Origin: Jimgerdemannia flammicorona
Lineage: Eukaryota
Direction: 5' to 3'
DNA: 32,840 nt
Assembly: GCA_003990765.1 (NCBI GenBank)
Contig: RBNJ01000331.1
Location: forward strand, 1 to 32,840
Part shown: one piece after another, positions 3,519 to 22,230 of the stretch
Numbering within the stretch: the first letter of the stretch is position 1
Layout: each line of letters begins with the position of its first letter
Position numbers and translations under genes: made by a program
The notes under the pieces: model-generated
The model's database searches: none
The model's input: only the letters and a program-made list of their open reading frames with translations
Told to the model about the DNA's origin: nothing

Positions 3519-6500
3519 CTACATTTTATCGAACTTCTTCTGTTTTCCCCGAATCCCCAGCATGCCCTGAACTCTTCCCAACACAGTGGGTTGGCCTGCG
3601 GTCACATTTGCGGAAGTGGATGCGGCAGAAGTGAAGGCGGTGGATCGCGTGGATGAACGCGCGGGACGAACAAATCTCTGCAAATGACGCTTGAGTAAGT
3701 ACAATGAAAAACAGAAAAACAGAAAACATGCCAAAGCTGTGAAACACCCAAAAGATCTCAAAAACTCACCTCAATCTGCTTGACGATTAACATATACGCG
3801 CTGTAAGTATGCGACACCAGCAACGATTCGGGGAACTTCCTGTCCAGTACATCCTCGAGGGCGTCTCTTTCCCCTTGCGAGAGTCCCGACATCGGCCAGA
3901 ACCTCGACGGGTCGGCGAGGTAGTGCGTGAGCTGGGCGTCGGCGCGAACGTCACCCTGCGCAACGGACAGGTACCTTGTCATAAACCTCTTGAGCGCTGT
4001 CGCAAATGCCGCCGCCGGGATCCTGTTGAGCGCCTCCGGGGGTCGGGAGCTGACGGACCCTGCGGACGGCTGCGGCCGGTTGGACTGGACGAGATCGGTA
4101 TTGCGCCAGTCGAGAGCATCGTTGAGGTCCTTTTCCGTTGCCTGAGGAAGGTCTTGCTTGTACTTCTTCTCCATGAACTCCATGATGACATCGGAGACCA
4201 TATCCTCGACGATTTCATAAAATCCCACGACATGCCTGAGCTGCAGATTTGCCAGTGCGGTTTTCTGGAATGATTTGCCGAGCAGGACAGACAGCTTCAC
4301 CCACTGCTTGCAGTAATCGGTGATGTAGATGGTCGCCATCTCGTCGGACGACGACGAAGCAGTCGTGCCAACAGTCCCGGCATGCGCGCCCGTTCGCTTG
4401 ATAAACGACAGCAGCAACTCCAGGTCGGATAGGATTTCTGACGCCCGATTGCTTAGCATGGTATCGCCGCGCAGAGCGGCGGCAACAGCAGGGGGTACGG
4501 GCTCCTGCGGGACGGCGGCGGCGACCTCATTGAAGATGTTTGAAGAGCCGTGGAAGAGCTCGAGGTGGTAGGCGAAGGGCTCCCACTCAAATTCAAGATG
4601 GGCCTTGTCGAAGACCAGCTGGTGCGCCAGCTCAAGCTCCATCTTGGCCAGATCGTAGGCTGCCTGTGCGCCCATCCCGAGCTCGAGGCTCCGCTGTGAA
4701 TACTGGAGGATCGTCGAGTCCCATTCGTACGCGATCAGTTGGGATTCGTGCGCGTCCATCAGCCGCACCGAGCGTAGATAGGGGGTTTGTGCGTCGGCGC
4801 CGGGCGTGGGGACCGGCTTGTTGTTAGATCGCTTGCCGCTGGTACCGGTTCGAGGGCCGGAGAGGTCGTCGATGGATCTAAGGGCACGTAGTCCGCCGGC
4901 ATTGGTCATGGTTTCGTTCAAAAAATCATTTTGGATGTTCACAAGGTATTCCAAGGCCGCAACAATATAAATCGATTCATCCTTTTCTTCCAACAGCGCG
5001 AAGACAACTGGGAGATCAATATGCATTTTGGCCATCGGCGTGGCTTCAAAATCGTGGCATTGGTACCTGTAAAGGATGGTTGGGTAATTTCTTTTGTAAA
5101 TACTCCGTTTTTTTTTTGAAAGAAATCATTTACTTTAATTGAGCACGTACCTGGTAATGTGAGACTTGACGGAATTCCACGCGTGAGCAAATCGATCAAA
5201 GCTGGACTGCAATGCCAGGCCATCGTGCTGCTCCTCGATGAACCGGCGAAAGGTCGTCACACGAGCCTCCGGCCGTTTCAACCGATGCGCGAGCCTTGTC
5301 GAAACGATGCCCACAAATTTGATCATGGCGTTCAAATGCTGCAAGCGCTCCAGTCGCTCATGATACTGAAAGAATATTGATAAGAACGGATGCTGCTGCT
5401 GACGAGTAGGATCACTCCAATAATACGCCCGCAATCCATCGAAGCTGAGGTCGCCGATGCGCCGCCAGAGCCGTGGGGCATGCGTCTCCACGTACTGGGG
5501 TGACATGAACGCCTCAAGCTCGTCGACTTCGATCTCTAGAAGCGACAAATTTGCCGCAGACCGAACCACTTTGACAAATTCCACCGATGTGTGTTGAATG
5601 TTGCGGATCGCCGGGAGGATGCAATTCTGGCTAAAAGTCATCTCCCACTGTTCACGAAGTGTGGATGTCGTCAATCTTAGGGATACAGTTGCCGCTGAGG
5701 AAGATGCAGAAGACGACGCAGTCTGAGACGACGCGGGAGATTTCGTTGACCGAAGGTTGGCAACGACGGCGTGAAGCACGAGCGCCAGGGTCTCGTCGTT
5801 ACAGTCCAGTATTATTTTGAGTTGGTTCCAGTCGTTCTCGATATGGCTCAGGCAGTACTGCGGCCAGCCGGTCGTCGAGGCCATCGACGGCGGGAGGACG
5901 GCGTGGACAAACATGTGGAGAATCCGGTATGCCGCAGGGGATAGTGACCGCACCGAGTGCGCGGCGTGCCCGCATGAGTTCGCGTTTGTTGCCTCTTCGA
6001 CAATATATCCAGGTTGGTCCGTGCTGGCAAGGTTGTTGACGGGGTTAGTGTCTACCCTGTTGTTCCCGGCGTTGGCTTTGTGATTTTTCCCACCGATGAT
6101 GTTCTTGCACTGCGGGCAGATACTTTCTTGCATAGTTTGTCCGCATTCGCCAACAACGTAGCGATAGCCACATTTGCATGACCAGCTGTAAAAAGATGAT
6201 ACGAAATGAAAATTAACGCGTGATGGATGAATTCGTTTTTTGGAGTATATCCCTTACCTCTAACCCTCTACACATTTACCTCGCCAAAAAAAAAAAAAAA
6301 AAAAAAAAAAATGTACCGGCTCAATTGGGTTAAGTTCGCGCCAATAAGAGCATTCAAGACGACTGCCTCTGTGTCTGACGGGCTTGCCAAGACGAACGTG
6401 CGATTCATCTCGGGAACATCATGTAAATACATGGCTAATGGTGACGCGCTTGCCGTCATGGACGCATGAAGAGCAATGACATGAGCGATGACGGATTTCA

Positions 6501-20719: not shown

Positions 20720-22230
20720 ATGCGGTGCGCTCAATGCGAGGCAGATAAGTTGTCCGTCGAATTCCCCGAAACAGCGGTTACGGATGCCTGTGAGCACATT
20801 CCTACCAATTGCCTGCGTGTAAGTAATGCGGAAGTTTACCAGACCATGTCAAGGCGTTAATGGTTTGAAATCGCAGTTCGCCTTCATACCAGTTTGGGCA
20901 ATGTCTGGTATATCACAATGCCCAACTCTTTCTCTCCCCTCAATTACATTTCCACAGTGCTTGGCCGTACAATTCTCACAACAAAAACCGCCTAACGCTT
21001 CAAAAACAATATCGTCTAGTTTTGGCAAGACGTGTCCCGAATGTGATGTTCCGTTGTCTCAGAAAGACTGGCTTCGGTTTACGGATGCGGTTGAAGCCCC
21101 AGCTTTTGCCTTGAACGTAACTAATATTGGCGTCATAACAAATGAAAAAGGCGTGCTGCAACCGAAATCAGCCTCATTAACCGCTGCTTCATCGGCGTCG
21201 AATGCGAAGGGATCCTCGTCTACTTCCGCGGCCGAGCCGGGGCCCTTAACGACCGGGGAGTTTTATGTCGTGCTTTTGACTGGCGAGCGATTTCCATTTT
21301 CGCTTAAGAACCATACTGGTGTCCAAGCTCTTAAGACAGCGCTGAAGAAGGTTGCAAATGTGGAGCCAACCAAGCAGAAGCTGATATTTCAAGGCACCGA
21401 ATTGAATGTAAGCACAATCTCTTGTTCGTTTCTCGAACTTTACGTGTCAACAACAAGAGAAACCTACGATAGCCGCTTTCTGAACCTTACTGATCTCCAC
21501 GATCTCAGGAGCATGGTCAAGATTCGCTCGCCGCCTATGGTATAGGACCCGGTAGCTACATCCAACTCATCATCATTCTTTTCGCGATCACTTCGGGTTC
21601 ACTAGTCCGGAATGTTACCTTTCGTCTTTATTGGGGTTACCCTGCCACCGGGAAGGACTATCTTGACGGCACATGCTTGGTGTTCCGAGACGGACCGGAA
21701 GACATAATGGTGTATGATTATATGCATAGATTTCGTCCTCCTTTCCCGCATATCAAGCACTCCGGTGACGTTATGGATGACGTTGGGAAGCGCGGTAAGT
21801 CTTGAGCTCTGTTCGTCTATTTTTTCTATTGCAAATATGAGAGGATATCACGTCTCAAAGTCAAATCATAGCAAATGCTTATTAACACGCATTCCACTAC
21901 CAAGGCCATCATGAAATCGTTGTGGACCTCGCCAATCTTCCTCCAGACGTCCGGCAACTTTACTTTGTGTTGAGTTCATTCCAGTCGCCCACGATCGGTC
22001 ATTTTCCAAACCCGTCTTTCCAAATGTTCGACAGAGACAAGCCAACCGAACAGCTTTGTTCGTATACCATTGCCAACGCAAAAGATCATCAAGCCGTCAT
22101 TCTAGCATGTGTATCGAGGACTGTTCAGGGTTGGCAGGTTGCGGCTGTTGGGCGATTGTCTTTGGGCAATGTCAACGACTATGACCCCATTATAGACACT
22201 ATCACCACAATCATGTTTGATTTGGCCTAA
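20720..22230 (+). CDS. RING (C3HC4-type) + ubiquitin-like + TerD-domain protein, 4 exons, 386 aa
   Basis: Exons 20720-20818, 20958-21407, 21509-21794 and 21905-22230 (1,161 nt; GTAAG donors; phases 0, 0, 1). RING: C-x2-C-x17-C-x-H-x4-C-x2-C-x24-C-x2-C (CAQC...CEH...CLR|C...CPEC). UBL: FYVVLLTGERFPF...LKTALKKVANVEPTKQKLIFQGTELN|EHGQDSLAAYGIGPGSYIQLII. TerD: LYWG...DYLDGTCLV...IKHSGD...EIVVDLANLPPDVRQLYFVL...LCSYTI...AVILACVSR...GWQVAAVG. Confidence 0.88.

Follow-up and report, generated by a model that had tools for sequence, protein, structure and literature searches.

A RING-less RNF213 relative and a divergent RING-like/UBL/TerD gene form a recurrent pair in Jimgerdemannia flammicorona and related fungi

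The stretch of DNA analysed here in full, hereafter the window, comprises 32,840 nucleotides of Jimgerdemannia flammicorona, a plant-associated soil fungus (GenBank assembly GCA_003990765.1, contig RBNJ01000331.1, positions 1 to 32,840 of the forward strand). It is nuclear DNA of the fungus, and its introns are short and bounded by GT..AG. Its minus strand carries a giant gene whose product resembles the ubiquitin ligase RNF213. Head-to-head with it, on the plus strand, lies a small gene for a protein that combines an N-terminal RING-like finger, an internal ubiquitin-like domain (UBL) and a TerD-fold domain. The coordinates of both genes, of their domains and of the region between them are collected in Table 1.

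To model the giant gene, its junctions were fitted to the homologues P0311 and P0004 and then read by eye. All 13 coding exons are bounded by GT..AG, the spliced frame contains no internal stop, and four full-length homologues (P0311, P0004, P0034 and P0059) are colinear with the entire gene span in tblastn comparisons. Of all junctions in the model, the acceptor at 17862 is the one most open to doubt. An in-frame stop at 20190-20192 fixes the start of the gene at the ATG at 20171. A product of ~5,140 aa had been estimated in an earlier note on this DNA, close to the 5,116 aa obtained here. Within intron 1 (18353-18545) there is a 113-base perfect homopolymer (18429-18541; A on the plus strand, T on the gene strand), which would read as poly-Phe if it were left unspliced. 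The largest exon contains an 18-bp tandem repeat of 3.1 copies (15943-15997) coding for ELENTD units in an acidic low-complexity stretch. In addition, the public sequencing run X1 (95-99% alike) has a 24-base in-frame insertion after 19014, in the N-terminal exon, which is a strain or allele difference within the variable N-terminal region of the giant protein.

Comparison with solved structures placed this protein in the RNF213 family. The RZ region aligned with residues 3926-4078 of mouse RNF213 (chain 6tax_A; phmmer, 7e-7), the Walker A region (aa 1435-1476 of the exon piece) matched RNF213 chains at 2e-5, and aa 37-272 of the large exon matched RNF213 3147-3365 at 1.2e-10. In each of three phmmer searches with exon pieces, nine of nine solved-chain matches were RNF213, and their order was colinear. 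Two putatively ATP-competent AAA units retain both Walker motifs, the first with Walker A GEAGCGK (aa 2396; 12518-12538, at the exon end) and Walker B FFDEIN (aa 2451; 12261-12278), the second with GAPGSSKS (aa 2727; 11338-11361) and LLDEIG (aa 2801; 11047-11064). Two Walker A/B-intact AAA units in a giant protein are likewise the arrangement of mammalian RNF213, of which only AAA3 and AAA4 bind and hydrolyse ATP, as stated in the available part of PMC12075652. Near the N-terminus, a CBM20-like stretch matched Pfam CBM_20 weakly (E 3.8e-4, 20.6 bits, under the cut-off of 23.3), and an N-terminal CBM20 is present in animal RNF213 according to the accessible text of PMC11549300. A protein search with the giant family gave 245 matches of 2248-5000 aa, 120 of which were listed; all statements on giant homologues below refer to these 120. 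Six of them carry a precomputed match to PF00686.

The giant gene had been described beforehand as RNF213-like with no recognisable RING, and both halves of that description hold. A lenient scan for Cys/His clusters, run over the three minus-strand frames and the spliced model, returned the RZ finger (aa 4263-4360) as the only cluster in the coding frame, and the same scan picked up the N-terminal finger of the small protein. Pfam found no RING family in the exon pieces, and none of the 120 listed homologues has a precomputed match to a RING, ubiquitin or TerD family. Together, these data identify the giant protein as a member of the RNF213 family that lacks one of its defining features, the RING. 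With mammalian RNF213/mysterin (6tax, 7oik, 8s24, 9g08, 9jw1) it shares giant size and a colinear succession of weakly CBM20-like N-terminus, dynein-like AAA core, a region of E3-module length and RZ finger. Unlike mammalian RNF213, it has no RING, spans a distance between AAA core and RZ finger that is ~140 aa shorter than in the human protein, belongs to a family with many paralogues in these fungi, and is adjoined by the RING-like/UBL/TerD gene.

The four-exon model of the small gene is an exact match to P0001, recorded as 'TerD domain-containing protein [Jimgerdemannia flammicorona]', which corroborates the 386-aa gene, divergent from its giant neighbour, that had been read from the DNA earlier; a search with exon 2 gave P0001 as its single match, at 100% identity. 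The finger of P0001, a putative cross-brace zinc finger, follows the ligand pattern C3, C6, C24, H26, C31, C34, C59, C62. Across 30 sequences, non-fungal ones included, the last six of these ligands are invariant and C3 and C6 occur in at least 90%; all eight also persist outside the fungi, in Physarum, Durusdinium, bivalves and a choanoflagellate. Of 16 further relatives inspected, 13 showed the strict pattern, as did 44 of 80 representatives that look full-length, and one relative, P0126, reached a Pfam RING match of 4.2e-4, just under the cut-off. A VIA structural search against representatives returned RING or U-box domains in nearly all of the 50 rows listed for the finger. The top rows were RING1 domains of RBR (RING-between-RING) ligases (HHARI, Z 4.6; HOIL-1L, 4.4; HOIP RING1 with UBE2L3, 4.2; ARIH2, 4.1), and the RNF213 RING scored 3.2. 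Judged from its model, the N-terminal finger appears to be only RING-like, and structurally closest to an RBR RING1.

The other two domains of the small protein were recognised directly. Pfam ubiquitin (PF00240) matched aa 138-205 at 7.6e-10 (38.9 bits against a cut-off of 25.4), and this part resembles ubiquitin with a Foldseek TMt of ~0.9. A small-family profile run against solved chains also matched ubiquitin chains, which swamped the search, so that it says nothing on the finger. The UBL sits inside the chain and lacks a terminal Gly-Gly, so in this form it is no conjugatable modifier. Pfam TerD (PF02342) matched aa 264-362 at 7e-10 (39.1 bits against a cut-off of 25.3). Foldseek, supplied with an AlphaFold model built from 34 relatives (predicted local distance difference test score, pLDDT, 77.7), aligned the TerD part with the bacterial structures 2kxt from Klebsiella and 3ibz, 2qz7 and 2qng from Streptomyces (E 1e-8 to 1.5e-7, TMt 0.71-0.76). 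Indeed, the beta-sandwich fold is the same and similarity is detectable in the sequence as well (phmmer, 1.2e-4 to 3ibz). Unlike these bacterial proteins, the domain is eukaryotic, is fused to a preceding RING-like finger and UBL, and has a GD.MD...KRGHH stretch in place of the GDN..GEGDGDDE-type cluster. Its genomic setting also differs from that of the bacterial ter operon, where TerD lies beside TerC, TerB, TerA and biosynthetic genes; here the locus is intron-bearing and eukaryotic, with RNF213-like, KH-domain and GSAP-like neighbours.

Transcription was assessed in four public runs (X1-X4) holding parts of the window. The RNA contigs were aligned over the part of the gene pair beside the 113-base homopolymer, the downstream coding junctions of the giant gene lying outside it. 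Both introns in the 5' untranslated region (5' UTR) of the giant gene were seen in spliced contigs of X1 (4028 nt) and X2 (695 nt), and an X2 contig spanning 20961-22267 confirmed introns 2 and 3 of the small gene; because their contigs are spliced, X1 and X2 represent RNA. Spliced contigs of both genes occur within the single run X2. The soil metatranscriptome X4 likewise yielded contigs of both genes, three of them 95-99% and two 90-95% alike, whose joints mark the same introns within 1-8 nt. Runs X1-X4 contained no contig over small-gene exon 1 or over 20576-20953; exon 1 rests on residues conserved in relatives and on the unbroken RING-UBL-TerD frame of L001, a metatranscriptome contig from a relative. 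The RNA contigs of X1, X2 and X4 thus substantiate two real, divergent and transcribed genes.

The spacing of 548 bp from ATG to ATG (20172-20719) given in the earlier note is correct. The 5' UTR of the giant gene, with its two introns, lies inside this stretch and leaves an untranscribed gap of at most 160 bp. Within the gap is a perfect tandem repeat whose core, GGTCACGTTG, has all three of its window occurrences inside 20611-20659; the 17-bp repeat is a candidate cis-element. The co-regulation that had been proposed for the two genes is borne out as far as this short common promoter region and the presence of both transcripts in X2, and no further.

Table 1. Features of the RNF213-like/TerD gene pair in the window (positions count from the first nucleotide of the window).
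Feature	Position	Strand	Details
RNF213-like giant gene, coding span	3519..20171	-	13 exons, 5,116 aa
Giant gene, exons 1-7	20171-18546, 18352-18029, 17862-17012, 16922-12518, 12422-12180, 12090-11263, 11187-11038	-	
Giant gene, exons 8-13	10928-10648, 10559-10096, 10004-6317, 6185-5151, 5066-3770, 3677-3519	-	
RZ-type zinc finger	6056..6185	-	Pfam PF20173, 7e-17, 61.2 bits (cut-off 27)
Last AAA units and hinge/E3-module equivalent, large exon	6317..10004	-	phmmer matches to RNF213; no Cys/His cluster
Second intact AAA unit	11047..11361	-	Walker A and Walker B; weak bpMoxR AAA match
First intact AAA unit	12261..12538	-	Walker A and Walker B on the spliced model
CBM20-like stretch	19488..19679	-	aa 165-228, N-terminal exon
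Giant gene, 5' UTR	20172..20559	-	exons 20172-20192, 20293-20377, 20481-20559 (at least)
Giant gene, 5'-UTR introns	20193-20292, 20378-20480	-	CT..AC on the plus strand, i.e. GT..AG on the minus strand
Shared divergent promoter region	20560..20719	.	at most 160 bp, between the 5'-most giant-gene RNA (20559) and the small-gene ATG (20720)
Perfect tandem repeat	20611..20659	.	2.9 copies of the 17-bp unit TCCAAGGTCACGTTGTC; Tandem Repeats Finder score 98, 100% matches
Small gene (P0001)	20720..22230	+	386 aa; exons 20720-20818, 20958-21407, 21509-21794, 21905-22230
RING-like C3HC4 finger	20726..21044	+	aa 3-62; split by intron 1 (20819-20957)
Ubiquitin-like domain	21270..21574	+	aa 138-205; split by intron 2
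TerD-fold domain	21611..22155	+	about aa 218-362; split by intron 3

We then asked how often the two families occur together. Co-location of homologues was judged from gene numbers, accessions and contig sizes in the protein searches, that for the small family having given 37 matches. By these criteria, a listed giant homologue lies on the same contig as the small one in at least four of the 36 other cases, at neighbouring gene numbers and with close accessions where these are given. The four loci are a second pair of J. flammicorona, hereafter pair B (BC936DRAFT_148834/148836, RUP51298/RUP51300, contig 26796), and pairs of Endogone sp. (BC937DRAFT_90714/90712, RUS21994/RUS21992, contig 28531), Ambispora gerdemannii (10721_t/10722_t, contig 67600) and Gigaspora margarita (16628_t/16629_t, contig 17505). 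They span Endogonales and Glomeromycotina, so that the linkage sought in other genomes extends beyond the window. In pair B and the Endogone locus the listed giant models measure only 2,269 and 2,638 aa, and the gene number skipped in each is probably the other half of a split giant model, which would give these loci the head-to-head order of the window. The paired giant genes fall into three separate branches of the giant-protein tree, and the giant and small trees agree on ((window, pair B), Endogone).

Among the matches listed, the named fungal members of both families come only from Glomeromycotina and Endogonales; for the giant family nearly all named matches are Glomeromycotina or Endogonales, with a few corals. 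A tblastn search with ten exon pieces for a giant gene near small-family relatives in 29 metagenome loci found nothing at E<=1e-3; these loci measure 1-9 kb and are mostly transcripts, and the giant N-terminus is poorly conserved, which makes this result uninformative. Literature searches (RNF213 with TerD; TerD domain; RNF213 in mycorrhizal fungi), which left most subscription journals outside, gave no description of the pairing, in line with what the earlier note had supposed. RNF213 itself is known, and its RING-less relatives and the small family stand unnamed in databases; the conserved two-gene unit appears to be undescribed in print.

The small family reaches far beyond these fungi. A full HMMER search gave 932 representatives at E<=0.001, of which 345 pass E<=1e-10. 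Look-ups of 20 representatives led to Entrophospora, the choanoflagellate Mylnosiga, an MMETSP protist, the bivalves Mya and Potamilus, the octocoral Dendronephthya, Physarum, a Picozoa record and the dinoflagellate Durusdinium. In a FastTree phylogeny fungi group with the choanoflagellate, animals fall together and Physarum lies with its relatives, a topology that fits old vertical descent. Mollusca are the commonest source in the Atlas clusters of UBL+TerD proteins, and clusters of 81 and 149 members are rich in them. The TerD clade also occurs behind other heads, as E2-TerD (P0268), kinase-UBL-TerD (P0293, Rhizophagus irregularis) and VWA-RING-UBL-TerD (P0183, Potamilus), and UBL-TerD or TerD is further joined to short-chain dehydrogenase, EF-hands or WGR (proteins including P0131, P0128, P0243 and P0267); some of these may be gene-model fusions. 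The consecutive accessions of P0315 and P0316 on a single 572,229-base contig of Durusdinium trenchii point to a tandem pair.

What the small protein could contribute was considered in the light of known ubiquitin ligases. According to the available part of PMC12075652, ATP binding to AAA3/4 activates mammalian RNF213, the ubiquitin-charged conjugating enzyme (E2~Ub; here UBE2L3) docks on the C-terminal domain (CTD), and a cysteine of the RZ finger is the nucleophile that takes over the ubiquitin, the RING being dispensable for this RZ route. A RING supplied in trans by the small protein for E2 recruitment, as had been proposed, is not called for by this mechanism, since mammalian RNF213 works with UBE2L3 independently of its own RING. 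Given this independence, the fungal giant should be a self-sufficient transthiolating ligase, and by analogy E2 recruitment alone would probably not require the small protein.

Functional coupling of the two genes is likely because both are transcribed, their spacing is close and divergent, four more paired loci exist, and the small family is widespread. Further findings were counted in its favour. The two trees agree on the Endogonales topology, and the pairwise identities of the five pairs correlate with r = 0.68 (10 comparisons), although shared species history alone would lead one to expect such a correlation. Among the matches listed, the named fungal members of the two families have the same range, and the short gap between the genes holds the perfect 17-bp repeat. 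The families are complementary, the listed giant homologues having no RING, ubiquitin or TerD match and the small family conserving its eight ligands. The TerD clade stands in a ubiquitin-system context, as the E2-TerD, kinase-UBL-TerD and VWA-RING-UBL-TerD fusions indicate. Finally, the top structural matches of the finger include HOIP RING1 bound to UBE2L3, the E2 used with RNF213 in the accessible portion of PMC12075652. Our preferred reading, to which we assign a probability of roughly 0.55, is that the two genes form a conserved divergent unit in which the small protein acts as a partner of the RING-less RNF213-family ligase, as a second ubiquitin route or as an adaptor.

Were this so, ATP binding would license the giant protein, by analogy with mammalian RNF213, to pass ubiquitin from an E2 to its RZ-finger cysteine and from there to the target. 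The small protein would be the separately encoded second ubiquitin route or adaptor of this ligase, with its RING1-like finger engaging E2~Ub, its UBL offering a docking surface, and its TerD domain binding a small ligand or ion and so gating or localising the pair. Specialised nucleotide derivatives have been suggested as ligands of TerD domains (PMC7159879, in the part available).

Two known kinds of protein resemble such an arrangement in part. In RBR ligases (HHARI/ARIH1, HOIP, HOIL-1L, RNF144A), E2~Ub is bound by RING1, and its ubiquitin then passes to a catalytic zinc finger. The finger of the small protein is near these RING1 domains (VIA Z 4.1-4.6 over 61-68 aligned residues), and a transthiolating zinc finger, the RZ, is found in its giant partner. 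Some RBR ligases also contain a UBL. Unlike RBR ligases, the small protein has one zinc finger and neither IBR nor RING2, and the parts lie on separate polypeptides; the comparison concerns mechanism, not membership, and the match scores are low. ZNFX1, the other immune protein with an RZ finger, resembles the pair in combining that finger with a RING-like domain, and has two competing ubiquitin routes according to the accessible text of bioRxiv 10.1101/2025.09.05.674436. Unlike the window pair, it is built around a helicase rather than an AAA ring. The two routes that the fungal pair would divide between two chains are united in one in vertebrate RNF213, as RING and RZ, and in ZNFX1, as a RING-like domain and a transthiolation route.

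A defence role of the pair is plausible by analogy, given the expansion of paralogues, the CBM20-like N-terminus (compare PMC11549300, in the part available) and the fact that Endogone, like Glomeromycotina, can harbour endobacteria, as reported in the accessible text of PMC5729711. The window itself shows no sign of a defence island: the flanking genes encode a KH-domain RNA-binding protein (463-1386, minus strand; KH_1, 3.6e-31) and a protein with a GSAP-16 C-terminal match (26728-27369, plus strand; 9.1e-8). A possible alternative, to which we lean less than to the preferred reading, is that the pair is coupled for a housekeeping task and not for defence against endobacteria or viruses: it would keep watch over lipid droplets, membranes or organelles in coenocytic hyphae that are rich in lipid. 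The ordinary flanks agree with it, as does the listing of lipid droplet formation and lipotoxicity among the cellular roles of RNF213 in the available part of bioRxiv 10.1101/2021.05.10.443411; however, the large, diversifying paralogue families and the CBM20-like N-terminus resemble the pathogen-facing part of animal RNF213, as described in PMC11549300 in the portion available. At the far end of the window, the segment 29000-32840 has a G+C content of 24-33%, a 61-base A run (29946-30006) and no open reading frame of 70 aa or more past about 30060.

Observations on both linkage and domain structure weigh against a coupled pair. As to linkage, 32 of the 36 other small homologues showed no contig in common with any of the 120 giant homologues listed out of 245, many of the contigs being short, and giant paralogues far outnumber small ones (245 versus 37 matches). 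Moreover, two RING-like/UBL/TerD genes face each other head-to-head on a metagenome contig (L010), at 50-436 (minus strand) and 1131-2533 (plus strand), so local duplication of small genes also takes place with no giant gene next to them on that side. All of this would suit a locus in which adjacency has been kept by descent alone, through segmental duplication and a bidirectional promoter, with no joint function and both multi-copy families merely expanded. Indeed, three of the five paired loci represent one Endogonales clade, and their adjacency may be a single inherited duplication. The Ambispora and Gigaspora pairs, however, sit in other, deep branches of both trees, which means that the linkage either outlived the split between Glomeromycotina and Mucoromycotina or arose more than once, and we consider descent alone a rather unlikely explanation.

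As to the domains, the earlier note had the small protein begin with a C3HC4 RING, of which the eight conserved ligands stand, with assignment to the RING family tentative. Pfam found no RING family in P0001 at E<=1, and RING matches in 20 of 34 small-family members remained below threshold. The finger folded alone (pLDDT 72) gave nothing in Foldseek at E<=0.001, its best match being HHARI at E 0.93; the best VIA score, Z 4.6, is low in absolute terms, and the H-x4-C spacing is longer than in a canonical RING. In the TerD domain the acidic cluster of bacterial TerD is not kept, GDNITGEGEGDDE of 3ibz aligning to GDVMDDVGKRGHHE, and the family consensus at this site reads HSGDxMDxxNKRGHH. That cluster is calcium-binding in bacterial TerD, as the title of 2kxt also suggests, and its replacement makes TerD-type calcium binding doubtful here. 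To these points is added the RING-independent mammalian RZ route, self-sufficient for E2 use in the available part of PMC12075652, which would equally suit a small protein that serves its own substrates as an independent RING E3 or adaptor under ligand control, sharing with the giant a stress or infection programme and a promoter and not binding it. We hold this account to be improbable: it draws on the wide spread of the small family (the Mollusca-rich clusters; Physarum, Durusdinium, Mylnosiga) and on the kinase, VWA and short-chain dehydrogenase heads of the UBL-TerD module, yet a head-to-head arrangement within 160 bp and a linkage across subphyla exceed the usual needs of co-regulation, and no listed member of the giant family has a RING of its own.

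Beyond the preferred reading of a conserved divergent unit, a broader and distinctly speculative picture can be drawn, which we think doubtful. Throughout eukaryotes, the RNF213 machine might originally have had a second half encoded by a gene of its own, the RING-like/UBL/TerD protein. In that protein the finger would supply or shape chains of ubiquitin, the UBL would bind to the giant ligase, and the TerD domain would sense a signal released on infection or damage (a small molecule, nucleotide derivative or ion) and thereby control the formation of coats. Vertebrates would afterwards have incorporated a RING into RNF213 itself and dispensed with the partner.

In humans RNF213 is a major disease gene, involved in moyamoya, and its product is an immune ligase of broad, cell-autonomous action; its target recognition and the purpose of its RING are current questions in the field. 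If true, a RING-like/UBL/TerD neighbour of RING-less RNF213 relatives would provide a candidate cofactor family, the pair would offer a natural split of two ubiquitin routes that can be dissected separately, and eukaryotic TerD domains would gain their first role in the ubiquitin system. The expansion of both families in mycorrhizal fungi points to an unexplored surveillance system of hyphae. Collectively, the recurrent pairing in distant fungal relatives points to an undescribed partner of the RNF213 ligase family.

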